A DNA stretch of 64,000 nucleotides from Clostridiales bacterium (lineage in GTDB: Bacteria; Bacillota; Clostridia; Christensenellales; UBA1242), in NCBI GenBank assembly GCA_918262735.1, contig CAKJYJ010000005.1:211035-275034 (forward strand), written 5' to 3'. Position numbers and translations under genes: made by a program. Shown here piece after piece: positions 28,423 to 63,303 of the stretch. The notes below the pieces were generated by a model, which saw only the letters and a program-made list of their open reading frames with translations, was not told the origin of the DNA and made no database searches. How positions within the stretch are numbered: position 1 is the stretch's first letter; each line of letters opens with the position of its first letter.

Positions 28423-31400
28423 CTACGCACTTCGCTTCCAGTATTTATCACGATAGGTTGACTTTAAATATGTTGCATTGGTTGAAGGATCGGTTAATGT
28501 AACGTCTGTTCCGCTAGTTGCATTTTTAGAACTTGACACAAACCAACCATTAGGATTTTCAAATGTAACACTGGTTAGACTGCTGCAACCATCGAATATA
28601 TTTCGCCAAATACTGGTTACACTCTCTGGTATAGTTACATTAGTTAGACTGTTGCAACCCTCGAATACAGCATCACCTATGCTGGTTACGCTATTTGGTA
28701 TGGTTATACTGGTTAGACTGCGGCAATATTGGAATGCATCAGAAGCTATGCTGGTTACGCTATTTGGTATGGTTATACTGGTTAGATTGTTGCAATATTG
28801 GAATGTCCAATAACCTATACTGGTTACTCCCCCACCCAAGATTACACTTGTCAGATTATCACATCTAGAGAATACAGCATCACCTATGCTGGTTACACTA
28901 TCTGGTATGGTTATGCTGGTTAGACTACTGCAACGAGAGAATGCATGATCACCTATGCTAGTTACACTATTTGGTATGGTCACGCCAGTTAGGCTGCGGC
29001 AATCATAGAATGCGGAAGAACCTATGCTGGTTACACTATTTGGTATGATTATACTGGTTAACCTGTAACAACCATAGAATGCAGAAGAACCTATGCTGGT
29101 TACACCATTTGGTATGGTTATACTACCAGTAAGACTACTGCAGTTATAAAATGCAGAAGAACTTATGCTGGTCACACCACTTGGTATAGTTATACTTGTT
29201 AGACTGCTGCAACCATAGAATGCAGAAGAACCTATGCTGGTCACACCACTTGGTATGGTTATACTTGTTAGACTGCTGCAACCATTGAATGCAGAATCAC
29301 ATATGTTGGTCACACTGTTTGGTATGGTTACACTTGTTAGACCACTGCAACCAGAGAATGTATTGTTCTTAATTTCTGTGATTCCTTCTGGTATTGCCAA
29401 TTCGGTTACCTCATTATTCCCAATATATAAATGGTGAGCATAGTATAATGGATTTGAATACACATCTACAAATGATATATTTAACCATGAGTCTATATTT
29501 TCTATTATTACACTTGTTAGGCTACTACATTTATAAAATGCATCACCTATACTGGTTACAGTGTTGGGTATAGTTATACTGGTTAAACTACTGCAATTAT
29601 AGAATGAATATCTACATATATTTGTTGTATTTTCATTTAGTGTTACCGAGGTTGTTGTTTTATCTGTAACATACAATGCATGATAGTTGTTTGCACTTTC
29701 TTTATAGTACACAACCCCTTCTATTTCTTCAATTTTATCAGTACTAAATTCTTCATCACTTATAACTAAATGTGCATAAGATGCAATGTTTCCATTATCG
29801 GAATACCCTACGGTTATATTTAATTGTGATAGGTTGTTTACTATATATAAATTATCGCAACCCCGGAATGCTTCATTGCCTATACTGGTTACACCATTAG
29901 AAATTGTTACACTGGTTAAACTGCTGCAATTATAGAATGTATAGTTCTTAATTTGTGTGATACCCTCTGGTATTATTAACTCAGTTACTTCATTATTACC
30001 AATATATAAATGATGAGCATAATACAACGGATTTGAAGAACTGTAAGTAAATGATATATTTAGCCATGATTCTATATTTTCTATTGTCACACCATTTAGA
30101 CTGCTGCAATTAGAGAATGCATAAAAACCTATGCTGGTTACACTATTTGGTATGGCTATGCTGGTTAGACTACTGCAATTTTTGAATGCAGAATCACGAA
30201 TGCTGGTTACACTATTGGGTATAGTTATGCTAGTTAGACTGCTGCAATTACAGAATGCACCATCACCTATGCTGGTTACACTATTGGGTATGGTTATACT
30301 TGTTAGATTGCTGCAATTATAAAATGCCCAAGAACCAATACTTATTAAACTATCTGGTATGATTAAACTGGTCAGATCGCTACAGTTATAAAATGCCCCA
30401 TTTGAAAAGTTTGACGTAGAGTATATGCCTGTTACACGATATATTTTATTGTTATAACTTACCCTGGCCGGAATAACAAGCTCGCCTGTTGGTTTGTTTG
30501 ATGAATTTGCTTTAACTTCAGCGGTTTTTGCTGATTCGTTATATGTGAATGTTAAGGTTTGATATTCACTTTCATTCATAACCTTAACGTATTCTATTGT
30601 AACATTGCTGGCTACTGTTATGTTATTACTAGTTGTTTCAGTTCCATTTATTACATAAACTGGTGTAATTCCATCAGTTGGAGCGGTGGTTGGTGACAAT
30701 GTTAGTATATCACCATAATAAATTGTTGCTCCTGATGTGAGTTGAATATTATTTCTGGTTACCGTTACCTCTTCTTGGAATGTTATTGTGTATTCCTCTG
30801 GTGTTATACCGCTTACCAATATGCTCACATTGTCGGTTACTGATGATATTGTATAAACACCATTTTCATTGGTAACTGTATCATTACCCTCATTTGTTAC
30901 TATCGGTGTTCCTGTGTAACCATATTCTAATTCAACAATAAATGAAATTGAATCTCCATATCTAACAGAAGCAATATCAAAGAATTGGTTGTTTGTGTTT
31001 TTAATGGTATATCCCGTTTGTTGTGATGGAACTGTTACTGTGTATGTTATTCTCTTTACACCTGTTATTGTTATGTTCACATCACTAGTAACATTTGAAA
31101 TTGTGTACACATCATTATCTGCCGTTATTGTTTGTCTGTTGTTCTTTACAACTGGTGTTCCCGTATAACCAGTTTTTAGTTCAACCTTAAAAGAAATTGA
31201 ATCGCCATATTCAACAACCATAGTTGTAAATGTTTCATTGTTTATGTCATTAATGGTGTATCCAGTTTGTGTTGTTGGCATTGTAATATTAAAAGTTAAT
31301 TTTTCATATATCGCTATATATTCGTCGTTCACATTACCTTCATTTAATGTGATTTCATATTTTTCCTCATCTGAAACAATCTCGTCATTTACTTCCCAAC

Positions 31401-31617
31401 CTATAAAACGATAGCCTTCCTTTTGAATTGCCTCAATAATAATTGTGTCTCCTAGCCTGCAGTTGTTTTTGCTCTCATATTCAATCTGCTCAACATTGGA
31501 TGTTATTTCAACTGTGTATGTTTTTGGTCCATTTCCCAGTCCAAAAACTAGCCCGGCACCAATGCCAAGCACCAAAATAACTCCTGCAACTAAAAACCAT
31601 ATTCTTTTCATAAACAA
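28423..31617 (-). CDS. Large BspA-type LRR surface protein with N-terminal Listeria-Bacteroides-type repeats
   Basis: 1064 aa with an N-terminal anchor and GYRFIGW / GYTGTP beta-rich repeat modules. More than 20 near-identical repeats follow, of the form SLTSITIPNSVTSIG..AF..CS. Confidence 0.85.
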   Translation of the reverse strand: MFMKRIWFLVAGVILVLGIGAGLVFGLGNGPKTYTVEITSNVEQIEYESKNNCRLGDTIIIEAIQKEGYRFIGWEVNDEIVSDEEKYEITLNEGNVNDEYIAIYEKLTFNITMPTTQTGYTINDINNETFTTMVVEYGDSISFKVELKTGYTGTPVVKNNRQTITADNDVYTISNVTSDVNITITGVKRITYTVTVPSQQTGYTIKNTNNQFFDIASVRYGDSISFIVELEYGYTGTPIVTNEGNDTVTNENGVYTISSVTDNVSILVSGITPEEYTITFQEEVTVTRNNIQLTSGATIYYGDILTLSPTTAPTDGITPVYVINGTETTSNNITVASNVTIEYVKVMNESEYQTLTFTYNESAKTAEVKANSSNKPTGELVIPARVSYNNKIYRVTGIYSTSNFSNGAFYNCSDLTSLIIPDSLISIGSWAFYNCSNLTSITIPNSVTSIGDGAFCNCSSLTSITIPNSVTSIRDSAFKNCSSLTSIAIPNSVTSIGFYAFSNCSSLNGVTIENIESWLNISFTYSSSNPLYYAHHLYIGNNEVTELIIPEGITQIKNYTFYNCSSLTSVTISNGVTSIGNEAFRGCDNLYIVNNLSQLNITVGYSDNGNIASYAHLVISDEEFSTDKIEEIEGVVYYKESANNYHALYVTDKTTTSVTLNENTTNICRYSFYNCSSLTSITIPNTVTSIGDAFYKCSSLTSVIIENIDSWLNISFVDVYSNPLYYAHHLYIGNNEVTELAIPEGITEIKNNTFSGCSGLTSVTIPNSVTNICDSAFNGCSSLTSITIPSGVTSIGSSAFYGCSSLTSITIPSGVTSISSSAFYNCSSLTGSITIPNGVTSIGSSAFYGCYRLTSIIIPNSVTSIGSSAFYDCRSLTGVTIPNSVTSIGDHAFSRCSSLTSITIPDSVTSIGDAVFSRCDNLTSVILGGGVTSIGYWTFQYCNNLTSITIPNSVTSIASDAFQYCRSLTSITIPNSVTSIGDAVFEGCNSLTNVTIPESVTSIWRNIFDGCSSLTSVTFENPNGWFVSSSKNATSGTDVTLTDPSTNATYLKSTYRDKYWKRSA
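28480..30360 (-). repeat. Tandem ~69-nt coding repeats (LRR units) inside the 1064-aa gene
   Basis: Variants of tatgctggttacactatttggtatggttatactggttagactgctgcaa recur roughly every 69 nt. An interruption occurs around 29,400-29,900. Confidence 0.75.
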
Positions 31618-32723: not shown

Positions 32724-34673
32724 ATGGCATCAACATATGAAGCAAAAGACATCGTTGTTCTTGAGGGGCTAGACGCAGTTAGGCTTAGACCTGGAATGTA
32801 TATTGGAACAACAGGGCAAAAGGGTTTACATCATCTTTTATGGGAAATCGTTGACAACTCCATTGACGAAATTGCAAATGGTTTTGGCGACAAAATAACC
32901 ATTTCCCTTAATGAAGACGGAAGCGCAACAGTAACCGACAATGGTAGAGGTATTCCTGTTGATATTCATCCAACACTTAAAGTTTCCGCCGTCCAAGTTG
33001 TTTTTACCGAACTTCACGCCGGTGGTAAATTTAACAATTCAAATTATTCATACTCTGGCGGTCTTCATGGGGTTGGTGCATCAGTTGCAAATGCTCTTTC
33101 TGAATGGCTTAATGTTACCGTTTGTAAAAATAAGAAAAAATATTATATGGAATTTGAGTCATATGCTGGCCCAGATGGAAAAATAAAAAGTGGTGTTCCA
33201 AAGGCTCCACTAAAAGAAATTGGCGACACAAACGAGAGAGGAACTTCGGTAACATTTCTCCCTGATAAAAGAGTTTTTGGAGAACTTACATTCGACTTTA
33301 ATATTATTGCAAACAGAGTTAATGAACTCGCATTTTTAAATAAGAATATAACAATTGAACTTAATGATAAAAGATACGGAAAATCACAAATTTTCCACTA
33401 TGACGGCGGAATAAAAGACTTTTTATTATATTTAGATAAGGGTAAAAATCGCCTATTTAGTGAACCAATTTATTTTAGTGCAGAAACCGATATTGTTAAG
33501 GCTGAATGCGCACTTGAATATACCGATGGCTACACTGAAAACTGTTTTAGTTTTGTTAATAATATTCCAACAACAGAGGGTGGAACTCACGAAATTGGTT
33601 TTAAAACCGCTCTAACCAAAGTGCTTAACGATTATGCAAGGGCTCATGGATACCTAAAAGATAAGGATGCAAATTTAATTGGCGATGATTACCGCGAAGG
33701 TCTTTCGGTTATTATTGCAATTAAAATGAAAAGCGTTCAGTTTGAGGGGCAAACAAAAACAAAACTTGGCAATCCAGAAGCAAAAACCGAAGTTGAAAAC
33801 ATAACAACAAAAGAATTAACAAAATTCTTAAATGATAAAATGAATGAAAAAGTTGCCGATGTTATTATTAATAAGGCAAAAGGTGCAGCAAAAACGAGAG
33901 AGGCTGCAAAACACGCCAAAGAAATAACTAGAGCAAAAAATAGTGCGGGAAGTTTTAACCTTGTTGGTAAACTTGCCTCTTGCACAAACCGCAAATGCGA
34001 ACAGAGTGAACTGTTTATTGTTGAGGGTGATTCGGCTGGCGGTTCTGCCAAGATGGGTAGAGATAGAAAATCACAGGCAATTTTGCCACTTCGTGGAAAA
34101 CCATTAAATGCTGAAAAAAAGCGTATTGACCAAGTTTTGGCAAATGAAGAAATACAAACCATTATCTCCGCACTTGAAACTGGCATACAAGAAGATTTTG
34201 ATTTGGATTCGCTTCGTTATGGAAAAGTAATAATTCTTTCCGATGCCGACCAAGATGGTATGCATATTAGGTCAATTCTTTTAACATTCTTCTATAGATA
34301 TATGCGTGGGTTAATAACAAATGGACACGTTTTCGTTGGTCTTCCCCCACTGTATAAAGTGTTTAGAAAGAATTATGAAGAATATGTTTATTCTGATAAA
34401 GAACTCCCAGAAGCAATAGAAAGATGCGGAAAGGGTTACGAAATTCAAAGATATAAAGGTCTTGGGGAAATGAACCCAGAACAGCTTTGGGAAACAACAA
34501 TGGACCCAGACAAACGAACCCTTGTTCAAGTTACCATTGAGGATGCTGCACAGGCAGAAAAAATGGTTACAGTTTGGATGGGTGATAATATTGACGCAAG
34601 AAAAGAATACATAGCCGAACATGCAAACTTTGATAGAGGTGATAAGTTTGCTGATGAATATTCAACTGTGTGA
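32724..34673 (+). CDS. parE: DNA topoisomerase IV subunit B (type IIA topoisomerase ATPase subunit)
   Basis: VLEGLDAVRLRPGMYIG, LHHLLWEIVDNSIDE, the EGDSAGG Toprim and PLRGK motifs. The ATG at 32724 follows AAAGGGG. I call it parE rather than gyrB because the partner A subunit is ParC-like and the C-terminal tail lacks the usual gyrB ..NLDI end. Confidence 0.8.
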   Translation: MASTYEAKDIVVLEGLDAVRLRPGMYIGTTGQKGLHHLLWEIVDNSIDEIANGFGDKITISLNEDGSATVTDNGRGIPVDIHPTLKVSAVQVVFTELHAGGKFNNSNYSYSGGLHGVGASVANALSEWLNVTVCKNKKKYYMEFESYAGPDGKIKSGVPKAPLKEIGDTNERGTSVTFLPDKRVFGELTFDFNIIANRVNELAFLNKNITIELNDKRYGKSQIFHYDGGIKDFLLYLDKGKNRLFSEPIYFSAETDIVKAECALEYTDGYTENCFSFVNNIPTTEGGTHEIGFKTALTKVLNDYARAHGYLKDKDANLIGDDYREGLSVIIAIKMKSVQFEGQTKTKLGNPEAKTEVENITTKELTKFLNDKMNEKVADVIINKAKGAAKTREAAKHAKEITRAKNSAGSFNLVGKLASCTNRKCEQSELFIVEGDSAGGSAKMGRDRKSQAILPLRGKPLNAEKKRIDQVLANEEIQTIISALETGIQEDFDLDSLRYGKVIILSDADQDGMHIRSILLTFFYRYMRGLITNGHVFVGLPPLYKVFRKNYEEYVYSDKELPEAIERCGKGYEIQRYKGLGEMNPEQLWETTMDPDKRTLVQVTIEDAAQAEKMVTVWMGDNIDARKEYIAEHANFDRGDKFADEYSTV

Positions 34674-34813
34674 ATATAAAACCAAATAGAGGCGATGTGT
34701 TGGGGTCCCCGAAAACAGCAGAACTTTGTTCGAAGTTTTTGGGGAGAGGAAGAACCTTGCGTAAAGCAAAGTTTTACAGAGTAAAACGAAGCCAAAAACA
34801 AGCGTTCTGACGA
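34674..34813 (+). other. 140-nt structured insert between the two copies of the parE 3' end
   Basis: Two long imperfect hairpins by eye. The first is CCCCGAAAAC..(GAAC-TTT-GTTC)..GTTTTTGGGG. The second is AGAACCTTG..(GTTTTAC-AGA-GTAAAAC)..CAAGCGTTCT. Confidence 0.3.
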
Positions 34814-34873
34814 GCCGAACATGCAAATTTTGATAGGGGCGATAAGTTTGCTGATGAGTATTCTAATTTGTAG
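34814..34873 (+). repeat. Orphan duplicate of the last 19 codons plus stop of parE
   Basis: 51/60 nt identical to 34614-34673, exactly 200 nt upstream. It would encode AEHANFDRGDKFADEYSNL*, against AEHANFDRGDKFADEYSTV* in the intact gene. Confidence 0.85.
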
Positions 34874-35253
34874 TAACAACAGATTTGTAAGGCAACTCAT
34901 TTGTTTAATTTATGAGTAATTGTGTGATTATGGACGATAAAAATAACGAAGAGGAAGAAAACGTTGTTATTCCGGGGCAAATGTGCTACGACGAGTTAGA
35001 GCCCATCACTTCCCCAGAAGAAACAATCATTCCAAATGAATTAAGTGGGCAAATAAAAATTGAGGATTTGCCGGGTTTTAACAAGAAAAATGTTGGCCCC
35101 AAAAAAGAACCGCAAATTTCAAAAAACTCAGAAACAAATAATAATTCAGAAACAAGAATAAGTTTTAACCTAAATGATAAGAAAAAAGAAGTTAAAACCG
35201 AAACAATATATAAAGAAAACAATATAAAAGAAGAAAAAAATAAGGAGTATCAA

Positions 35254-37686
35254 GTGGCAGAAAAGGAAACAGTTTCGCAAGGTGGAACACCAACAAGAGA
35301 AAGCATATTATATAAGTCATTAGAAGATGTTTTGCATGAATCAATGATTCCATACACCGAACATGTTGTTATGGATAGGGCTCTACCTAGGGTTGAAGAT
35401 GGTTTGAAACCTGTTCAAAGAAGAATTTTATATGCAATGTATGATATGGGCTTAATGCCAGATAAACCATTCAGAAAGTCCGCAACAGTTGTTGGTGAAT
35501 GTTTGGGTAAATATCACCCACACGGTGATACGTCCGTTTATGATGCAGCCGTTCGTATGGCACAAGATTTTTCTTTAAGAGAAGTATTAATTGATGGTCA
35601 TGGTAACTTTGGTTCAATTGATGGTGATGGCGCCGCTGCGTATCGTTATACCGAAATGAAGTTAAAACCCCTTGCCCTTGAACTTTTAAGAGATATTGAA
35701 AAAAACACGGTTCATTGGAGCTTAAATTTTGATGATAGCCGAAAAGAACCAGACACTCTTCCTGGCAGGTTCCCTAACCTGCTTGTTAATGGCGCATACG
35801 GAATTGCCGTTGGGGTTGCAACAAATATTCCTCCTCACAACCTTGGTGAAGTTATTGATGCAGTTGTTGCATATATTGATAAACCATCAATAAACTGCAA
35901 AGGACTTATGAAATACATTAAAGGTCCGGACTTCCCTACTGGAGGAAATATCATTGCAACCGATGAGCTCGAAAAGGCATATGAAACCGGTAAGGGAAAA
36001 ATAACAATAAGGTCAACAATAGATATTGAAAGCGCTGGCGACAAACAATATTTGGTTATTAAAGATGTTCCTTATCAGGTAAATAAAGCGCAACTTCTTC
36101 AAAAAATTGCAGAACTTAAAGAAACAAATAAAGAACGATTATCCGCAATTCAAGAAATTCGTGATGAGTCCGACAGAAATGGTATTCGGGCTGTAATTAG
36201 GCTCAAAAAAGAAGCTAACGCAAAATCAATAATGGACTTTTTATATAAGTCAACCAACCTTCAAACAACTTTTGGTATTAATATGGTTGCAATTGCTGGC
36301 GGAAAACCAAAACAGATGAGCCTGGTTGAAATTATTTCATACTATGTTGAATATCAAAGGCAAGTTGTTTATAGAAGAACAAAATTTGACCTGGATGTTT
36401 GTAAAGATCGTGCCCATATTTTAGAAGGTCTACTTATTGCTATTCAAAACATTGATGAAGTTATAAGAATTATTAAAAAGTCTGAAAGCGTTGCCGTTGC
36501 TAAAACAAAATTGAAAGAAAGATTTTTACTATCTGAAAAACAAGCAGTTGCAATTTTAGAAATGAGGCTTTCTAGACTTGTTAATTTGGAAGTAAATAAA
36601 ATTAAAGAAGAACTTGCTGAGTTAAAACAACGTATTGAAGAATTAACAGAAATATATATGTCTAAAGCAAAACAATATGAGGTTGTTAAAAAAGAAATAT
36701 TAGACATTAAAAAAGAATATAAAACAGCAAGACTTACAAAACTATTAGACCCTAACACAATGGCTGTTGAAGAAGTTGAAGAAGAAGTTATTGTTAAGGA
36801 TTATTATTTAGGAATAACCGCTGCAGAAACCGTTAAGGCAATTCCTGTTAAAAATTACAATCTTTCTGTTAGAGAGGTGGGAGAAAATGCTTCTCTTGGA
36901 GAAATTCATACGGGTCTTCTTAAAATTCAATCAATTGATAGGGTTTTAATATTTACCGACCTTGGAAATGTTTATAAAACAACCGTTTCTCAAATTCCAG
37001 AAGCAAGATGGAAGGAGCGAGGAACAGATTTATATAAACTAGACAAAAACCTAGTTCACGGAGAAAAGCCAATTAAAATTGTTGGGTTAAACCGAGAAGC
37101 ATTTGAACTTGAATCAATCAATATAACAATGATAACCGAGTCTGGCTTAATTAAAAAAACGAAACTTGCCGAATACAACATTGCAAAAAGCGTGTTTGCC
37201 GGAATTAAATTAAAAGAAAAAGATAAGGTTGTTGCCGTGTTTGAAAGTGATGAAAGATATTCAATTGCAATTGCAACAAAGCAAGGTATGGTTCTAAATA
37301 TCGCTGACGATATTGAAACTACCGGCAGAACAACATCTGGTATTAAGGCTATTGCCCTTGATGATAATGACAAAGTAATCTCTGCAATGCAAGTTAAAAA
37401 GAATGGAACTTTTACAATATTAACCAATAAAGGCTATGTTAAAAATGTTTCCGTTGGAGAATATGATATTTCTTCAAGAAATAGAAAGGGTCTTAGAATA
37501 ACCGGCAAAGACACCGGGCACCTATCATTTATTTCTTTTGGTATTGTTCCTCCAAACATTGCCGTTTACCAAGAAGGCAGGGTCGTTTTAATTAAGTCTA
37601 AATATATTCCATACGAAAATAGAATTGGAAAAGGAAAACAAATGTTAAAAGATGAATTCAAAACAGCATTTGAACCACTTGAATAA
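35254..37686 (+). CDS. parC: DNA topoisomerase IV subunit A
   Basis: [36 protein letters not shown] and [11 protein letters not shown]. No GyrA box is present; [15 protein letters not shown] sits where QRRGGKG would be. [10 protein letters not shown] resembles B. subtilis ParC LPDIRWKDLG. The GTG at 35254 is preceded by AAGGAG with 6-nt spacing, but the frame is open upstream to the ATG at 34912 (tracked ORF 924 aa). Confidence 0.85.
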
Positions 37687-42175: not shown

Positions 42176-42356
42176 AGTTCCTCCACCGTGTAATTTATTA
42201 TAACATACACTATTTAATATTTCAATATGTTTTTTCTTATCATTTTTGTCATTCAAAAAATGACCCACCCATGCAAAATGGTAAATTTTTAATAAATAAT
42301 GTACATTTTTTTAATTATGGTGTATAATTAAAGAAAAAATTTATTAATAACATTTT

Positions 42357-42396
42357 GCGCCCATAGTGAAATGGATATCACACGAGTCTTCGGAAC
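42357..42396 (+). pseudogene. tRNA-Arg(UCG)-like 5' half (fragment 1), ending at the anticodon loop
   Basis: GCGCCCATAGTGAAATGGATATCAC matches the intact tRNA at 42647 in 24/25 nt. Similarity is lost right after GTCTTCGGAAC, and no T arm or acceptor 3' strand follows. A TGTATAAT extended -10 lies about 30 nt upstream. Confidence 0.7.
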
Positions 42397-42561
42397 GTCG
42401 TCGCAATTATCAGTTTTTCTGCATTATTTGCTCCGCAAAATGCAATGTCGCCTTCAATTGCTCCTCTCCCCATTCGGTTCTTCAAACCTCTGGGGACCCC
42501 AAATCAACTCACCAATGGTTCCTCTTGCTTAAATATGTTTTTTTAATTTTTATATTTTTTT

Positions 42562-42630
42562 GCGCTCATGGTGTAACGGATAGCACAATGGTCTTCGGAA
42601 CAGATTTCGTGGGTTCGATTATCCCATTAA
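42562..42630 (+). pseudogene. tRNA-Arg(UCG)-like fragment 2: good 5' half, degenerate 3' part without an acceptor strand
   Basis: GCGCTCA TG GTGT AACGGATA GCAC A ATGGT CTTCGGA, followed by ACAGATTTCGTGGGTTCGATTATCCCATT. That following stretch cannot pair with the 5' half. Confidence 0.7.
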
Positions 42631-42646
42631 AAAAATAATCACATTT

Positions 42647-42721
42647 GCGCCCATAGTGAAGTGGATATCACAATAGTCTTCGGAACTATTATGCCGAGTT
42701 CGAGTCTTGGTGGGCGCACCA
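42647..42721 (+). tRNA. tRNA-Arg (anticodon UCG), intact
   Basis: GCGCCCA TA GTGA AGTGGATA TCAC A ATAGT CTTCGGA ACTAT TATG CCGAG TTCGAGT CTTGG TGGGCGC A CCA. All four stems pair. Two hairpin terminators follow. Confidence 0.85.
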
Positions 42722-42969: not shown

Positions 42970-44319
42970 TTACATTTCAAAATCTCTTTGTCTGCGTTTT
43001 CTTCGTTCTTCTTGCTTTTGTTTTTCTTCAAGTATTTGCTCTTGTTCCTTTCTTTTTTCAGCAAGTTTTCGTTCAAGTTCAGCAATTTCGTCATCAAGAT
43101 TTTCTTCTTTAATCATTTCTGGCTCTTCAATTTCTTCTTCGTTTTCTTCTGTTGGTTGTTCTATTGTTTTTGTAAGAGCGTTGCTAATTGCATTTGCACT
43201 TTCATATTTTGCCGTGTAGTCCAAATGTGAATAGACATCGGCTGTTGTGTTAAAGTTTGAATGGCCTAACCATTCCTGAATATTTTTCATTGGGACTTTA
43301 CTTGCAACAAGCAAACTAGCACAAGAATGTCTTAAATCGTGAAACCTAATGTGTTTTAAGTGGTTTCTTTGTAATATTTTTCTAAACCTGTTTGTAACAA
43401 GATTTGGGTCATAAATATCACCAATATCATCAACAAACACATAATCAACATATTTGTAGTTATAACTTTTTCCAAACACTTCTTTGTTATGTTCAATCTC
43501 TTGCTTTCTTTCAAGTAGCATTTGTTCTATTTCTGGGAGCAAAGGTAATGTTCTATTACTTGCTTGTGTTTTCAAAGTGTCGGACAAATAATAAACTCCA
43601 TTTACATTTAAGACCTTGTGTTTAATTGTTATCATTTTATTTTCAAAATCTATTGCGTCCCATTTTAAGCCAATTAGTTCACTTCGCCTAAATCCATAAA
43701 AAGCGGCAACACGAACTATTAGTTTCAGAGATGTTTTGTCCGTAACCTTAAATAGTTCTTCTAATTCGTCTTTGTTATAAAAGTTCATTCTTGTTTTTTC
43801 TCTTTTTATATGTGGCATAAACTCGTATGGATTTTTTGCAATTAAATCATCTCGGTATGCCTTGCGAAGTGCTGGCGAAAGCAGAGTAGCGTGATGTTTG
43901 ACTGTAATGTTTTTATTCCCTCTTTCTTTTCTGAGATAGTCATAGAAATCCAAAATGTGATGATAAGTTACATCTTTGAGTTTTAATTTGTCACCAAAGA
44001 ATTTTTTTATAACTCTCACTTGATTACTGTATGAGTAAAAAACTGCCGGCGAAAGTTCATCTTTCTTGCTTTCCACATATTGCTCAATATAATCCACAAA
44101 TAAAATATCATTTTTAACTTGTGGCTCGGGTGTCTGTTCATAAACTTCTTCTGGATTAAATTTGTCTAATTGTTCTTTGAGAAATTTTTGTGCTTCCTTT
44201 TTATTACCTCTCTCTTTAAGTCCTGTTGTAATCCATTTTTGCTTATATTTGCCATAATTATCTTTGTAGTTTATGACAGCATAATATATGCCATTTTTTA
44301 CTTTCAAACTTCCTGTCAT
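42970..44319 (-). CDS. Tyrosine-type site-specific integrase with a charged C-terminal tail
   Basis: 449 aa with an N-terminal arm-binding-like domain, a SAM-like core-binding domain and the catalytic residues in order: FRRSEL (Arg I), HDLRHS (His-x-x-Arg), GHSNFNTTADVYSHL (His/Tyr). It lies adjacent to the tRNA. Confidence 0.9.
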   Translation of the reverse strand: MTGSLKVKNGIYYAVINYKDNYGKYKQKWITTGLKERGNKKEAQKFLKEQLDKFNPEEVYEQTPEPQVKNDILFVDYIEQYVESKKDELSPAVFYSYSNQVRVIKKFFGDKLKLKDVTYHHILDFYDYLRKERGNKNITVKHHATLLSPALRKAYRDDLIAKNPYEFMPHIKREKTRMNFYNKDELEELFKVTDKTSLKLIVRVAAFYGFRRSELIGLKWDAIDFENKMITIKHKVLNVNGVYYLSDTLKTQASNRTLPLLPEIEQMLLERKQEIEHNKEVFGKSYNYKYVDYVFVDDIGDIYDPNLVTNRFRKILQRNHLKHIRFHDLRHSCASLLVASKVPMKNIQEWLGHSNFNTTADVYSHLDYTAKYESANAISNALTKTIEQPTEENEEEIEEPEMIKEENLDDEIAELERKLAEKRKEQEQILEEKQKQEERRKRRQRDFEM

Positions 44320-44525
44320 AGTTGTTCACCTCCAATTAAATATGCGATGACATTGTATTTTGGGATTTTATAGTCTTTGCCAATTTTGACTGATTTGATT
44401 GTTCCATCTCGCAAAAGTTCATAGGTCTTTGTTCGTTTGATTCCGAGCATTTGGCCTAATTGTTCAACTCCAACGCAATCTGGGAAATCTTTAAACATAA
44501 TTTCATTTAGTTCTTTAATGCCCAT
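44316..44525 (-). CDS. Excisionase-family helix-turn-helix protein
   Basis: VEQLGQMLGIKRTKTYELLRDGTIKSVKIGKDYKIPKYNV is a typical HTH_17/Xis pattern. It overlaps the integrase start by 4 nt. The ATG at 44525 follows GAGGTG. Confidence 0.7.
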   Translation of the reverse strand: MGIKELNEIMFKDFPDCVGVEQLGQMLGIKRTKTYELLRDGTIKSVKIGKDYKIPKYNVIAYLIGGEQL

Positions 44526-44533
44526 ATTGCACC

Positions 44534-45220
44534 TCACATTTCCATATCTGACTTTCGGCTTTGATTTGCAATATCAAGCAAGTCATCAAGGTTGGTTAAA
44601 AATCTTTTATTTCGTTTAAGGTCAATATTGGCATAAATATTTTGTATTCTCTTAAATTTCAAATCAAATCTAGTCCAAGCACGGTAATAATCGTAATCGT
44701 GAGCTTTTTGACATATAAATTTGTCAAGACAGCAAGCAAGTCCAGAAAGTAAGATTTGTGGCAAATTATTATCTCTTCCAACATATCTCAAATTTCTGCT
44801 TAGAGTATTGTAATTTAATCTTGTTCCATTGTCTTTAAGAGCAATATATTCTTGATAATTGAAATTATAGTTTTCTTTCAAAATGCTGTTTTTAAGTTGT
44901 TTTTTTTTAAGTTCTAAAAGTAGTTTTTTAATGCTTGGGAGTAGTGGAAATTCTCTCATTAAATTTGTTTTTCTTTCACAATCCCAACCATAATAAAATT
45001 TTGAATTTCGTCCTTGTTTGATAGGATAAATTTTTATTGTGTTATTCTCAAAATCTATATCTTCCCATTTGATATTTACAAGTTCCATTCTTGATATTTC
45101 ATAGGCCATAATCAGTTTGAAATAACACTCGTATTTGTTTCCTTTGATAGCTTTCAAAAATGCTTTCGTTTGTTTTAAGTCAAAGGTATTTTCGTCATTG
45201 ATTTCATTTAGATAAATCAT
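44534..45220 (-). CDS. Tyrosine-recombinase-like protein lacking most catalytic residues
   Basis: It aligns by eye to the catalytic domain of the neighbouring integrase. ISRMELVNIKWEDIDFENNTIKI matches FRRSELIGLKWDAIDFENKMITI, and FPLLPSIKKLL matches LPLLPEIEQML. However, HDLRHS is replaced by LSGLAC, and no VYSH-type Tyr context is present. The ATG at 45220 follows GAGGAAGGAA. Confidence 0.6.
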   Translation of the reverse strand: MIYLNEINDENTFDLKQTKAFLKAIKGNKYECYFKLIMAYEISRMELVNIKWEDIDFENNTIKIYPIKQGRNSKFYYGWDCERKTNLMREFPLLPSIKKLLLELKKKQLKNSILKENYNFNYQEYIALKDNGTRLNYNTLSRNLRYVGRDNNLPQILLSGLACCLDKFICQKAHDYDYYRAWTRFDLKFKRIQNIYANIDLKRNKRFLTNLDDLLDIANQSRKSDMEM

Positions 45221-45264
45221 AGTATTCCTTCCTCGTTTTAAGATTTTATCTAAACACATTTAAC

Positions 45265-47376: not shown

Positions 47377-47640
47377 ATTTTCAAAAAAATTTTAACAATG
47401 TCGTTCGGAAACACCTTTGCCGGTCGGTTAAACTTTTTTTGATTTTTCAAAAGTATTTTACAATTGTCGCATTATCACAGGTTGATAACACGAGAAAAGT
47501 TTTTTAACTTTTTCAAAGAGATTTTAGCAGTGCATATTGCCATACATCTTAGCAATACTAAAAACATTTTATATTTGTCGGTGGTTCAACGGTTGAACCA
47601 TCGGTCAAACTTTTTTAACTTTTTCAAAAAAAATTTTATA
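47377..47640. repeat. Iteron-like array: 3.5 copies of a ~30-nt A/T-tract module, each preceded by a different palindrome
   Basis: The module aaac-tttttt-(g/a)a(t/c)-ttttcaaa-(a/g)(a/g)(t/a)-atttta occurs at about 47430-47460, 47497-47526 and 47608-47638, with a partial copy at 47379-47395. Palindromes TTATCACAGGTTGATAA (47471-47487) and GGTTCAACGGTTGAACC (47583-47599) precede units 2 and 3; unit 1 has only a weaker one. TGTCG delimiters sit at 47398, 47465 and 47576. Confidence 0.7.
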
Positions 47641-54975: not shown

Positions 54976-55019
54976 CTTCGGAACCATCAGTGAGGGTTCG
55001 AATCCTTCTGGGCGCACCA
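54976..55019 (+). pseudogene. Orphan 3' half of tRNA-Arg(UCG) (attR side)
   Basis: CTTCGGA ACCAT CAGT GAGGG TTCGAAT CCTTC TGGGCGC ACCA. No 5' half lies upstream. ACCAT and TGGGCGC pair with ATGGT and GCGCTCA of fragment 2 at 42562. Confidence 0.75.
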
Positions 55020-55249
55020 AACAAAATAAATCCAAACCAGTATTGGCGAGGATTTTTTTGTTTGTACTTTTCACTCTTATCTTTTCATTCTTCACTTTTC
55101 ACCATCTCGGATTTATTTTGAACGAAAGAATAAAAATGAAAAAATAAAAACAGTTGTGATTTGAATAAGTACAAAAAGCAAAAGACAATAAAATTGTGTT
55201 CCGCCGCACCATGAGTGATTGTTAAAGCGTAAAGTAACAAGGCAAATTA

Positions 55250-55263
55250 TTCTGGGCGCACCA
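55250..55263 (+). repeat. Second copy of the tRNA-Arg 3' end (TTCTGGGCGCACCA), followed by a second copy of the same terminator
   Basis: Identical to 55006-55019. The downstream hairpins at 55020-55059 and 55264-55303 are clearly homologous. Confidence 0.75.
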
Positions 55264-55425
55264 GATAAAACAAATCCATGCCAAAATTGGTGAGGATTTT
55301 TTTATGCATTAACCTTTTGTTTCTCAGCAGCTATCAAAAATCAATTAATTTTACACAAAATTAAGCAAAAAAAAATTGTTTTTAATAAAAAACCCAACCA
55401 AATTTCACTTTGATTGAGTATTTTT

Positions 55426-57159
55426 TTATTGCCTTATTTTAATATGTAGCTCTCTTAATTGTTTTTCATCAGCCTCAATTGGTCCACCCATTAAAACATC
55501 TTGGGCTTTGCTGTTCATTGGGAATGGAACAATATCTCTAATGTTCGTTATTCCAAGCATTAACATTAAAAGCCTTTCAAATCCCGGAGCCACCCCGGCG
55601 TGTGGTGGAACACCATATTGAAATGCAGTGTACAGCGCCCCAAATCTTTTAATAATCTCATCTTCTTTGTAGCCCACAACATCAAATAGTTTTAACATCA
55701 TTTCCCTATCTGTGTTTCTAACAGCACCAGAAGCAACCTCATAGCCGTTAGCAACCAAATCATATTGATAAGCTTCTATTTGTAGTGGATCAATATCGGT
55801 TAGTTCATTAACAGAAACTTTTGGTTTGTTAAATGGGTTATGACAAAACTCAATTTTTCCATCATCTGACAGCTCAAACATTGGAAAATCAACAATCCAG
55901 CAAAACTCGGTTCTAGTTTTGTCTATTAGTCCAAGTTTTTCTCCAACCTCACTTCTTAAAAGCCCTGCAAGTTTATAGCATTTTTTAGGGCTGGCATCTG
56001 CAATAATAAAAATATCATCACCAATTTTTGCTTTTGTTTTTTCTTTCAAGTCTTCACATTCTTTGGGGGTTATAAATTTAACAATTGGTCCTTTTAGACT
56101 TCCGTCCTCTTGAACTCTAACCCAAGCAAGTCCCTCTGCACCCTCACAGAGCATTAAATCTTGTAGTTTTTCAAAGAATGTTCTTGATTGGCTGCTTGCA
56201 TCTATAGAAAATCCCTCAACTGTTCTATCTTTGAATGCGTTGAATGTGGTTGCACCAAAAACGTCTTCAAGCCCAACCATTTCTATTGGGTTTCTAAGGT
56301 CGGGTTTATCCGAGCCATATTTTACCATTGCTTCCTTATATGGGATTTTTTTGAAAGGTCCTTTGTTAAATGGAAATTTACTATATTTTGTAAAAAGTTT
56401 TTCAATTAAGATTTCAACAGTTTTTTGAACATCTTCTTGTGTGGCAAAACTCATTTCCATATCTATTTGATAAAAATCACCTGCAAGTCTATCTGCCCTT
56501 GGGTCTTCATCTCTAAAGCAAGGTGCTATTTGAAAGTATTTGTCAACCCCACCACACATTAATAGTTGTTTGAATTGTTGTGGAGCCTGTGGCAAGGCGT
56601 AAAATTTCCCTTTATGCAATCTACTTGGCACCAAATAATCTCTTGCCCCTTCAGGACTTGGACCGGTTAATATTGGTGTGTTTACTTCTGTGAAACCCAG
56701 CTCCCTCATTATAACTCGTGTGTCAAAAGCAACATCCGCCCTTAATTTTAACATTTGTTGCATAGCCTCATTTCTTAAATCAAGATAACGATATTTTAAT
56801 CTTAATTCTTCGCTAGCCTTTAAGCTATCTTCAATGTCAAAAGGCAAAATATGTTTCGATTCTGACAAAACTTTCATTTCTTCAATATCAAGTTCAACCA
56901 TTCCCGATTTTATAGCTGGGTTAATTGTGTCCTCATCTCTTAAAATAACTTTTCCTTTAACCGTTATAACGCTCTCGCGCGAAAGAGTGCTAAGCAAACT
57001 ATCGTCATGAGTTTTTAGTTGAACAATTCCACTTTTATCTCTAATGTCAATAAAAACAATACCGCCGTGGTCACGAACCGTTTTTACCCAACCGGCAAGT
57101 TCAATTTTTTCGCCAATTAGTTTTTCGTCGACATCGCCTAACATTACGGTTCTATACAT
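55426..57159 (-). CDS. aspS: Aspartate--tRNA ligase (bacterial type; possibly non-discriminating)
   Basis: 577 aa with FRDEDPRADR, QIDMEMSF and GFERLLM class IIb motifs. It is the last gene of the gatCAB operon. Confidence 0.9.
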   Translation of the reverse strand: MYRTVMLGDVDEKLIGEKIELAGWVKTVRDHGGIVFIDIRDKSGIVQLKTHDDSLLSTLSRESVITVKGKVILRDEDTINPAIKSGMVELDIEEMKVLSESKHILPFDIEDSLKASEELRLKYRYLDLRNEAMQQMLKLRADVAFDTRVIMRELGFTEVNTPILTGPSPEGARDYLVPSRLHKGKFYALPQAPQQFKQLLMCGGVDKYFQIAPCFRDEDPRADRLAGDFYQIDMEMSFATQEDVQKTVEILIEKLFTKYSKFPFNKGPFKKIPYKEAMVKYGSDKPDLRNPIEMVGLEDVFGATTFNAFKDRTVEGFSIDASSQSRTFFEKLQDLMLCEGAEGLAWVRVQEDGSLKGPIVKFITPKECEDLKEKTKAKIGDDIFIIADASPKKCYKLAGLLRSEVGEKLGLIDKTRTEFCWIVDFPMFELSDDGKIEFCHNPFNKPKVSVNELTDIDPLQIEAYQYDLVANGYEVASGAVRNTDREMMLKLFDVVGYKEDEIIKRFGALYTAFQYGVPPHAGVAPGFERLLMLMLGITNIRDIVPFPMNSKAQDVLMGGPIEADEKQLRELHIKIRQ

Positions 57160-62729: not shown

Positions 62730-62811
62730 TGGTGCGAGAGAAGGGACTTGAACCCATACTCTTTCGAACTTGCCCCTTAAACAAGCGCGTCTGCCATTCC
62801 GCCACTCTCGC
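62730..62811 (-). tRNA. tRNA-Leu, class II; anticodon read by eye as AAG
   Basis: The reverse complement is GCGAGAG TG GCGGAATGGCAGACGC G CTTGT TTAAGGG GCAAG TTCGAAAGAGT ATGGG TTCAAGT CCCTT CTCTCGC A CCA. Alignment to the Bacillus tRNA-Leu(UAG) arm CTAGA-CTTAGGA-TCTAG places AAG at positions 34-36 and G at 37. The T stem has one U-U mismatch. Confidence 0.75.
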
Positions 62812-63005
62812 ATACAATTAAATATATTTTGCCCACTAGGTTTATAGTTTACGGGGCAAGTAAACTTGTTTCTCAAAACTGCATTCAAGTTTTGCAATTC
62901 CAAAATATAATTTGTTCTTGCATTTTCTTGAAACGGGGCTTACGCCCTGCGACGCCCGTTGCTCACTAAAATTGAAACCACTGGTTCAATTTATTAACGT
63001 GGCAA

Positions 63006-63100
63006 CCCTTAAACAAGCGCGTCTGCCATTCCGCCACTCTCGCATACAATTAAATATATTTTGCCCACTAGGTTTATAGTTTACGGGGCAAGTAAACTTG
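63006..63100 (-). repeat. 95-nt duplicate of the tRNA-Leu 5' half (from the anticodon loop) plus its upstream promoter region
   Basis: Identical to 62774-62868, at an offset of 232 nt. Identity starts exactly at the anticodon loop (plus strand cccttaa). Confidence 0.85.
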
Positions 63101-63303
63101 CTTCTTGAAAATACGTTTATCATTATATTAGCATTTTTGTTAATTGTCAACTGGTTTATACTATATTTTTTCAAGATACTAGCCAGATATGTTAATAATA
63201 ATTCTATTTTTTATACCCCAAAATATTTATTTCAATTTTTACAAATAATTAATATTGACAATTGCCAACCACTCTGCTAAAATATCGCAATCGGAGAATA
63301 AAT

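Follow-up and report, generated by a model that had tools for sequence, protein, structure and literature searches.

A probable insertion of a phage-type structured element, with a replacement gene end, between parE and parC in an uncultured lineage of Clostridia

Several described systems alter the ends of the genes next to which they settle. Prophage e14 and phage 21 rebuild the 3' end of their target gene icd in Escherichia coli, whereas arrays of displaced "orphan" 3' ends typify the polymorphic-toxin loci cdiA-CT/cdiI and the rhs tips. Small intergenic repeats that are co-transcribed with their neighbours, such as REP/BIME, ERIC/IRU, the Correia/NEMIS elements of Neisseria, the pneumococcal BOX and RUP and sequences like MITEs (miniature inverted-repeat transposable elements), can influence the processing or translation of the neighbouring mRNA. 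Non-LTR (non-long terminal repeat) retroelements and SINEs (short interspersed nuclear elements) are marked by a precise 3' end, a variable or truncated 5' end and a target duplication of variable length. Lastly, ICESt1/ICESt3 and the cis-mobilizable elements (CIMEs) derived from them reside in the 3' end of fda and likewise rebuild it; CIMEs undergo tandem accretion (PMC5704250, PMC7563491). Parts of these patterns are seen at the junction of parE and parC, the genes for the two subunits of topoisomerase IV, in a 64-kb stretch of DNA (contig CAKJYJ010000005.1; hereafter the window, meaning the whole stretch of 64,000 nucleotides) from an uncultured, low-GC (33%), Christensenellales-like lineage of Clostridia. 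The spacer at this junction is a complete phage-type structured element that was probably inserted in the end of parE along with a replacement tail, with the resident tail displaced downstream.

The observation at the root of this proposal is a direct repeat of the parE tail (34614-34673 versus 34814-34873), in which 51/60 nucleotides are identical and the start-to-start distance is exactly 200 nt. A repeat finder pairs 34613-34671 with 34813-34871 (52/59, spacing 200), and the similarity is well above chance (blastn E=1.8e-14) and the sole such pair at the parE-parC locus. The two copies differ at nine of 60 positions (15, 24, 27, 45, 51, 53, 55, 59 and 60), their longest exact identity being 17-18 nt. 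Copy 1 translates as AEHANFDRGDKFADEYSTV followed by a stop and copy 2 as AEHANFDRGDKFADEYSNL followed by two stops; all five differences in codons 1-17 are synonymous (AAC/AAT, AGA/AGG, GGT/GGC, GAA/GAG, TCA/TCT). Direct reading, the repeat search and the translations agree in every detail with the initial annotation of this stretch, which had reported the 60-nt duplicate with its purely synonymous differences in these codons, and folding confirms its statement that the spacer forms two long hairpins. The locus is laid out as follows:

32724-34673, + strand: parE (topoisomerase IV subunit B), 649 aa, from the list of open reading frames (ORFs), alignment with the gene call of the sister-lineage contig L083 and the Pfam domains of homologues
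34614-34673, + strand: copy 1, the translated parE tail AEHANFDRGDKFADEYSTV with its stop, comprising the last 19 codons and the TGA
34674-34700, + strand: linker of 27 nt from the parE stop to the element, non-conserved in the family
34701-34813, + strand: structured element of 113 nt, a full-length family member by model R1, a viral-only covariance model
34670-34810, + strand: 46-codon ORF running through linker and element, its GTG overlapping the parE TGA as GTGTGA
34814-34876, + strand: copy 2, the displaced resident parE tail AEHANFDRGDKFADEYSNL with TAG TAA, not translated within parE
34877-34929, + strand: ancestral parE-parC intergenic region, from alignments with L081 and L083
34930-37686, + strand: parC (topoisomerase IV subunit A), the long frame opening at ATG 34912

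The start of parE is probably ATG 32724 rather than TTG 32682, where the table-11 ORF opens, as judged from alignment with the 649-aa L083 gene call (97.5% amino acid identity). The first base of copy 2 directly abuts the GACGA that ends the element, and its TAG ends at 34873, 38 nt ahead of ATG 34912. The initial annotation had taken this 38-nt distance as that to the first ATG of parC; it holds for ATG 34912, but alignment with L083 and L081 makes ATG 34930, which opens the conserved MDDKN, the likelier start. Upstream of MDDKN there is a 4-codon mini-ORF (ATGAGTAAGTTTTAA) in L083, which in the window is in frame with parC, and the N-terminal extension of ParC (about 130 residues, window 34912-35320) is highly lineage-specific, its best outside matches being 46-53% identical. 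The spacer has a GC content of 42% as against 33% for the window, a composition that looks foreign and may be counted in favour of import.

As with the integrative elements named above, the insertion point of the parE unit is the 3' end of a housekeeping gene, the replacement end that it brings has diverged but codes equivalently, the resident end is left as a downstream relic, and units can be stacked in tandem. The parE unit differs from those elements in having no recombinase gene, no recognisable att (attachment) arms and an insert of only about 140 nt. The likeness that the initial annotation drew to such elements is hence to be taken as one of outcome.

The direction of change can be read from related genomes. 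A parE-parC junction could be recognised in 76 species-level relatives; in these the genes nearly always abut (-20 to +20 nt), and no second copy of the relative's own parE tail was found downstream in any of the 76. The relatives that lack the unit, more than 80 in all, include L081, whose ParE is 91% identical and whose intergenic region is 20 nt, as well as L084/L085 and L086, with intergenic regions of 70-88 nt. The sequence that follows copy 2, AAGGCAACT, is homologous to the true parE-parC intergenic region of L081, AAGGTAACT, and the ParE tails of relatives end in YSN or YKNI and two stops, as does copy 2. Since the relatives lack the unit and match copy 2 in both intergenic sequence and tail ending, it is copy 2 that has kept the ancestral surroundings, and the 200-nt unit is an insertion specific to the lineage. 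The earlier suggestion that copy 2 marks the ancestral junction is upheld by this comparison, which is also the alignment of related junctions that had been proposed as a check. A protein search of 5.8 billion clusters missed the ParE and ParC of L082 and L083 although both contigs are in the contig index, so that relatives from this clade can be missed; the ParE and ParC of the window have no exact-protein record.

A sister lineage carrying the same arrangement was recovered through the 46-codon ORF, a search with whose peptide returned one cluster (P0121) on two ENA contigs, L082 and L083, both of them parE-parC junctions. The ParE of L083 is 97.5% identical to that of the window and the gene 87.4% identical in DNA, with 209/650 codons (32%) differing synonymously. 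Its array reads tail A, unit 1, tail B, unit 2, tail C, parC, that is a 200-nt unit present twice with three tails, and the array of L082 contains a 100-N scaffold gap. The parE linker differs between units, occurring in NIKPNRGD and NIKLDKGD versions. Among the five known parE tails (two in the window and three in L083) there are seven variable sites in codons 1-17, all of them third-position and synonymous; the placement alone has a probability of (1/3)^7, about 5e-4. Copy 2 is the outlier, with 5-6/51 differences from each other tail, which is about the host background rate, and with four private changes, all synonymous. Copy 1 lies within 1-3/51 of the L083 tails and has its YSTV ending and the following linker in common with tail B. 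Copy 2 thus has the history of a working parE end in the lineage of the window itself, and copy 1 probably arrived together with the element. Both proposals of the initial annotation on this point, namely that the copies stem from two different functional parE alleles and that the insertion brought a surrogate 3' end, are supported by these patterns, with copy 1 close to the L083 tails and copy 2 resident.

The spacer itself behaves differently from its surroundings. Its 108-nt core shows only three differences between the window and L083, all in one hairpin loop, as against 36% of the 4-fold sites in parE; the probability of such conservation is about 4e-17 if the core is neutral and 2e-6 under coding-only constraint. 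The unit (copy 1 plus spacer) is therefore either considerably younger than the split of the hosts or subject to selection at the nucleotide level, if not both. In L083 unit 2 the start of the 46-codon ORF is lost and a frameshift is present, a parallel to the decay of displaced units in orphan-end arrays. As in those arrays, the parE units begin with homology to the gene 3' end, the newer ones lying near the gene body and the older ones being displaced and decaying. Unlike the toxin arrays, however, the tails at parE all specify one peptide instead of alternative toxin domains, no immunity gene accompanies them and the unit measures 200 nt.

The spacer proved to be a member of a structured family that is abundant in uncultured phages of gut Clostridia. 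Model R1, built from 41 viral sequences only and none from the window, matches the parE spacer over model positions 1-108/108 (cmsearch with filters off, 51.9 bits, E=6.5e-12). Within the element the following parts are discernible:

about 34706-34745, + strand: helix P1, preceded by the 5' block UGGGGUCCCC, its tip 18 nt longer than the consensus
34740-34750, + strand: block UGGGGAGAGGA
about 34751-34763 with 34795-34809, + strand: long-range helix P2
34771-34787, + strand: apical hairpin P3, GUUUUAC-AGA-GUAAAAC
34807-34813, + strand: 3' motif CUGACGA

The family has a constant order in which UGGGGUCCCC, P1 and UGGGGAGAGGA are followed by the 5' strand of the long-range helix P2, an internal loop (GGAAUGA..), a U-run, the apical P3, the stretch ..GAUAUGGAG, the 3' strand of P2 and a terminal GAsGACGA, amounting in total to about 108 nt. 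In the parE copy the conserved blocks GGGUCCCC and UGGGGAGAGGA and the 3' GACGA are all present, and its helices align to the model as CCCCGAAAAC/GUUUUUGGGG for P1, GAAC../..GUUC for P2 and GUUUUAC/GUAAAAC for P3.

On its own the parE spacer folds with a z-score of only about -1.7 on either strand, and its fold is therefore convincing only through comparative data. These are strong: the RNAalifold consensus has 26 pairs, of which 20 show compensatory double changes, and 94.5% of the paired cells are complementary versus 75.4% in shuffled alignments and 42-53% when the partners are slid. Cells with double changes number 221 against 65 expected, a value reached in 0/500 shuffles. The family alignment contains 88 G·U pairs and nine A·C, and since G·U is far above A·C the sense strand is the folding strand. 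The initial annotation had held that its reading would fall if the spacer had no other copies and no conserved structure; other copies were found, with strong covariation.

Its proposed Rfam scan matched no family: Rfam 15 gives no match in 34660-34880 at E<=10 and none on the viral copies at E<=1, the negatives including hammerhead I/II/III, twister, pistol, hatchet, HEARO and the IS605-orfB motifs. The family was likewise not found in the searchable literature, and is thus previously uncatalogued, being absent from Rfam 15 and from the literature searched. In its size of about 100 nt, its multi-helix junction and its occurrence in several copies per phage genome it is reminiscent of the intergenic ribozymes of phages (hammerhead, twister, pistol, hatchet), and the CUGACGA of the parE copy recalls the CUGANGA box of the hammerhead. 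It is unlike them in lacking any Rfam ribozyme match even at E<=10 and in an order of conserved blocks that misfits the hammerhead. A hammerhead reading of CUGACGA...GAAC was accordingly rejected, as the blocks come in the wrong order, stem II is missing and no model matches.

Motif scans of IMG/VR recovered four viral stretches with the composite motif and 70 with a three-block version of it, where less than one was expected, and the viral loci contain 104 model hits, up to five per contig. The phage copies are packed tightly between genes. In 56/75 a same-strand ORF starts no more than 20 nt after the 3' GACGA, often overlapping it (GACGATGG...), and in 34/75 a same-strand ORF stops no more than 15 nt before GGGGUCCCC; the gap equivalent to the parE linker is 0-33 nt and non-conserved. 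The flanking genes are varied: they code for connector, head closure, ClpP-type protease, portal, chaperone then tape measure, and gpX then gpD, and further for baseplate, HNH, exonuclease and polymerase proteins. No recombinase lies beside the element in the flanks of the 75 viral copies, which are structural or replication genes. Because tight intercistronic gaps recur across many gene pairs, the element may be regarded as a portable intercistronic module that is co-oriented with the operon in phages. Its purine-rich 3' end seems to resemble the Shine-Dalgarno region of the next gene, and in phage mRNAs the element probably presents a ribosome-binding region (GAGGACGA) on a stable scaffold to the downstream cistron. 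The parE copy likewise lies between two genes on their strand, but its 3' end abuts the relic tail and the start of parC is 116 nt further.

The completeness of the match, the iteration of the 200-nt unit in L083 and the usual form of the family, a module of about 108 nt with no recombinase alongside, lend no support to the idea in the initial annotation that most of an inserted element was later lost. The family is closer in form to the small intergenic repeats, being about 100-150 nt long, non-coding, multi-copy, structured, placed in operon gaps and oriented with transcription. It differs from them in lacking terminal inverted repeats and a short fixed target duplication, in residing mainly in phage genomes, in its three-helix junction with conserved single-stranded purine blocks and in its long gene-segment duplications. 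A MITE was for its part rejected, as there are no inverted repeats at the unit boundaries and duplications are either absent (69/77) or 44 to about 130 nt long.

A second instance of the tail-spacer-gene arrangement was found in the window itself, by a whole-window repeat scan and direct reading, at a tRNA-Arg gene. The two best short blastn matches of the parE spacer both fall within the tRNA-Arg spacer, collinear and on the opposite strand, and the composite motif GGGGTCCCC-N(10-40)-GGGGAGAGG occurs in the 64 kb only in these two spacers (0/100 shuffles). The earlier proposal to look for further copies of the spacer was thereby answered within the window. The parts of this locus are:

42355-42397, + strand: displaced 5' half of tRNA-Arg(TCG) (copy a), the counterpart of parE copy 2
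42395-42501, - strand: second element copy, full length (cmsearch 34.7 bits, E=2e-7), between stacked tRNA-Arg 5' halves
42559-42721, + strand: on the other side of the second element, a truncated pseudo-tRNA-Arg (copy b, about 42559-42625) and the intact tRNA-Arg (42647-42721)

Here too the 3' end of the element, GACGAC, adjoins the duplicated segment, in this case the reverse complement of the tRNA-Arg 5' half. The 5' strand of the anticodon stem is ACGAG in the displaced half versus AATAG in the intact gene (partner CTATT), from which it follows that the displaced half comes from a different functional allele. Immediately downstream of tRNA-Arg are two tyrosine-integrase genes (42970-45259), one of 449 aa with a SAM-like N-domain and one of 241 aa that looks partial; the region is probably an integrated island or a prophage remnant.

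Copies were also found on other cellular replicons. L083 has two model hits (50.8 and 47.9 bits), and the 84 parE-relative loci (756 kb) yielded one further hit, L042. This divergent full-length copy (L042:3-109), in Candidatus Coproplasma stercoravium, lies at a contig end about 250 nt upstream of parE; its block variants GGGCUCCC, GGGAAGAGGA and CGACGAGG indicate that the "invariant" blocks can vary, and its position that the family is present on other Christensenellales chromosomes. Two copies from Subdoligranulum variabile (L157, OY725877.1 28566-28672, and OY725878.1 157090-157204) are on replicons of about 250 kb labelled as plasmids, one of them about 1.8 kb from an aadE aminoglycoside-resistance gene; both records are essentially unannotated. 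The parE spacer has no blastn match in the phage or plasmid collections, and a blastn comparison with about 50,000 deposited phage genomes likewise failed to find the element. Neither the parE-type core nor the clade-specific tail peptide turned up when IMG/VR and JGI metagenomes were scanned with exact or degenerate patterns.

Three genes beside the element have a duplicated segment, namely parE (window and L083), tRNA-Arg (window) and the portal gene of phages L126/L136. Without exception the downstream duplicate starts at a distance of 0-1 nt from GACGA; on the 5' side there is a non-conserved linker of 0-57 nt, and the length of the duplicated segment varies (44, 60-68 and about 130 nt). 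The phage contig L126 has a 220-nt unit repeated 4.6 times, with five portal-gene tails and four model hits. Of the variable sites in its tails six are synonymous and two nonsynonymous, and per nucleotide the variation of the tails is about threefold that of the intervening elements, which is the same signature as at parE. Other phage copies are composite: at L100:5103-5727 a 5'-truncated copy without P1 is fused directly to the GACGA of a full copy, at L113:1413-1654 a 3'-truncated copy, cut in P3, is followed by a full copy, and composite or truncated copies were also noted at L120:5086-5284. Such copies suggest frequent rearrangement at or within the element. These features bear a likeness, in pattern only, to non-LTR retroelements and SINEs, with the precise 3' GACGA junction, the 0-57 nt 5' linker, the 5'-truncated L100 copies and duplications of 44 to about 130 nt. 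The element departs from them in that no reverse transcriptase is linked to it at the loci examined, there is no poly(A)-like tail and mostly no target duplication. That it is a non-autonomous mobile RNA module of phages and their Clostridia hosts, propagating via its transcript or 3' end by template switching or reverse transcription, is in our estimate doubtful. Were it true, such propagation would produce the precise 3' junction, the ragged 5' side and the long target duplications; the module would be a phage or bacterial counterpart of a SINE that doubles as a translation-initiation cassette, and could land in essential genes or tRNAs without lethal effect because it regenerates the disrupted part of the gene.

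A further duplication in the window concerns tRNA-Leu(AAG) (62730-62811, - strand), where a 112-nt segment made of the 5' 38 nt of the tRNA and 74 nt of its upstream region is duplicated 232 nt away (62774-62885 versus 63006-63117, 95% identical). The architecture is like that at parE and tRNA-Arg, but the insert is different or unrecognised: the hairpin-rich spacer (62886-63005, 120 nt) was considered as a family member and rejected, having no model hit and no convincing alignment.

Taken together, the data show a complete family member at parE and a lineage-specific unit, with copy 1 belonging to the element; the resident tail is copy 2, and arrays of this kind recur. The scenario that we favour begins with insertion of a unit of parE tail, short linker and element at the base that opens the final 19 codons of parE, whereby copy 1 would keep parE intact and copy 2 would be pushed downstream to persist as an untranslated relic beside the ancestral intergenic region. 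As the unit appears much younger than the host divergence, it would have moved between lineages, reaching that of the window from a related one; the likeliest route is a homologous exchange that took in the parE-parC region and had its right-hand crossover somewhere in the tail's first 14 nt. Unequal recombination between the tails or elements of diverged alleles could then expand, contract and reshuffle the arrays, giving two units in L083 and four to five in L126; relic tails would differ mostly at synonymous sites because all of them belonged to functional alleles until recently. In the founding event itself a long target duplication of variable length would have arisen, with a precise junction at the 3' GACGA of the element and a 5' side lacking such precision. 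The parE copy is most likely carried along as a passenger, which can be tolerated since neither parE nor parC is disrupted.

Several observations weigh against this interpretation. Flanking duplication is a minority outcome, with no flanking repeat in 69/77 copies examined, and its link to the mechanism of insertion is uncertain; a founding insertion of template-switch or copy-choice type starting at the 3' end of the element, which we favour among the mechanisms considered, has in our view somewhat less than an even chance of being correct. The near identity of the element in two hosts could reflect nucleotide-level selection and not recent transfer. Only two independent genomes have the parE array, as L082 and L083 may be the same strain, and an empty-site allele of the same species was not found. 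Since the viral sequences were retrieved through three motif blocks that they had to match exactly, the invariance of these blocks is partly a matter of construction; the covariation lies outside the recruiting blocks and hence is not circular. The designation as an RNA element derives from strand-specific covariation and co-orientation and is to that extent provisional. Further, the parE copy scores below the phage copies (52 versus 67-115 bits) and no start codon follows its 3' end, so that it may be decaying or non-functional. Finally, the ORF through the element has a textbook stop/start overlap with parE and could be the selected feature at this locus.

This last point leads to one of four alternative explanations, each of which accounts for fewer observations than the insertion of a phage-type element. 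The 200-nt unit could be a micro-gene cassette selected for a basic peptide of 46 aa whose translation is coupled to that of parE (GTGA/ATGA overlap); the tail copy would be required because the start of the ORF overlaps the parE stop. In both genomes the first-position unit has the ORF intact and its start overlapping, in the displaced unit 2 of L083 the ORF is broken, five of six isolated single-base differences among the three copies fall on third codon positions (p about 0.05), and a gene caller predicted it (P0121). Nonetheless, apart from the orthologue in L082/L083 the peptide is an orphan among 5.8 billion clusters and 1.84 billion representatives, without a Pfam, PHROG or PDB match. 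Codons 12-46 (34 codons) have zero synonymous differences between the hosts as against 32% of the parE codons, which argues for nucleotide-level conservation or recency and not for protein selection. Moreover, what is conserved is precisely the stretch that matches an RNA family; in phages the members of this family sit between stop and start codons, and those at other loci largely have no open frame. The sole hypervariable triplet, codon 37 (AGA/GAT/AAT, encoding R/D/N), is the P3 loop. We regard the peptide as decidedly unlikely to be the selected feature, and the ORF, whose UGA stop lies inside the 3' motif of the family and whose frame continues into copy 2, is probably incidental. A vertically inherited cis-regulatory RNA of the parE-parC operon (an attenuator, processing site or parC coupler) duplicated locally in place, with the tails kept by alternative pairings or gene conversion, would account for the extreme conservation of the core between the two hosts; the GCGAUGU of the spacer can pair with ACAUGC at the start of either tail, and as no terminator is predicted parC is probably co-transcribed. 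Against this, the element is absent from all other relatives, including that with a ParE of 91% identity, and it is found again beside a tRNA and among dozens of gene pairs that have nothing to do with parE. The stem closing onto the tail is broken in L083 (GUGUU to GUAUU) without compensation, and the private changes of copy 2 are all synonymous, which is unexpected for an in-place duplicate that is drifting or under selection for RNA pairing. We consider this origin highly unlikely; the related attenuator idea was dropped, as the consensus fold of the three parE sequences has 0 compensatory pairs and the stem onto the next tail is broken in L083.

The tandem tails might instead be the work of a remnant or miniature, CIME-like site-specific integrative element, the 140 nt being leftover attachment arms that a recombinase acting in trans could still move or stack. 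The logic of the outcome is identical to that of elements restoring gene 3' ends; the 60-nt tails flank the insert like att direct repeats from the end of the target gene, the inferred crossover falls at the left edge of the identity block (its first 14 nt), the stacked units of L083 resemble tandem accretion, and GGGGTCCCC is a near-palindrome that could bind a dimer. Two tyrosine-integrase genes are, moreover, only 8 kb away, beside the tRNA-Arg with the second copy. Yet the insert is a complete family member and not a fragment, is too small to encode a recombinase, and belongs to a family of which 69/77 copies have no flanking repeat and which sits among ordinary phage structural genes with no recombinase adjacent. 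The excess of G·U over A·C pairs (88 versus 9) speaks for selection on a single-stranded sense fold and not on duplex protein-binding arms, duplication lengths vary widely (44, 60-68, about 130 nt), and no free parE tail was present on any phage, plasmid or IMG/VR contig searched. The family as a whole differs from integrative elements in the same respects, its conserved feature being a fold with G·U pairs rather than a duplex binding site, flanking repeats being mostly absent and the duplicated part (44 to about 130 nt) at times the 5' part of a gene, as at tRNA-Arg. An integrative origin is thus, in our assessment, unlikely. Scarcely credible is an assembly artefact joining two strain variants of the parE end in tandem: although the window looks metagenome-assembled and the 100-N gap in the array of L082 shows that assemblers have difficulty here, the longest identity of 17-18 nt is shorter than the usual assembly k-mers, the 140 nt between the copies are unique sequence with an independent family identity, and the architecture recurs in independent assemblies (L082, L083) and phage contigs (L126, L136).

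Some narrower ideas were tried and discarded. An older decayed tail in the 5' part of the spacer, suggested by an echo of ATAGAGGCGAT, is not significant, with 47-179 of 1000 shuffles reaching it, and an origin of the spacer from the 5' region of a donor parC finds no blastn or tblastx similarity in the loci of 81 relatives. TGA as a sense codon (code 4) in parE is contradicted by long ORFs that are intact under table 11, with Trp encoded by TGG and stops distributed as 27 TAA, five TAG and four TGA. A diversity-generating retroelement does not fit differences (C/T, A/G, T/C, A/G, A/T) that are not confined to adenine, or neighbours comprising parC, an epimerase and others. IS200/IS605 elements or a TnpB omega-RNA are disfavoured, since no such gene occurs by the window or viral copies, Rfam gives no match and long duplications are present, and integron attC and IS91-type readings lack their defining features.

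If phage-type insertion at parE is correct, the locus is a natural example of an essential gene, that for topoisomerase IV, tolerating an insertion, and arrays with near-identical elements and synonymously differing tails are a record of recombination between diverged alleles in uncultured populations. The association of the element with long duplications of neighbouring genes at parE, tRNA-Arg and the phage portal gene points to an unusual mechanism of insertion or rearrangement. A covarying RNA of about 108 nt with more than 100 copies in the slice of IMG/VR retrieved by exact pattern is a candidate for a new class of regulatory or processing RNA in gut phages. Annotation pipelines can be led to miscalls by such relic tails and by the spurious 46-aa ORF.

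A few features of the window stand apart from the element. A third, weak model hit (56039-56125, - strand, 14.3 bits, E=0.04) inside a 577-aa ORF is probably a false positive or very decayed. Local direct repeats occur at 47449-47636 (77 nt at 111-nt spacing, 70% identical) and 55001-55303 (59 nt at 244-nt spacing, 83% identical). Upstream of parE, at 28423-31617, is a gene for a 1064-aa BspA-type leucine-rich-repeat protein with a long internal array of 69-nt (23-codon) repeats, and a related leucine-rich-repeat gene is upstream of parE in L086. At gathering thresholds Rfam identifies in the whole window only three tRNAs and the ribosomal protein L10 leader (RF00557, 14943-15082, - strand, 69.7 bits), an ordinary cis-regulatory element.

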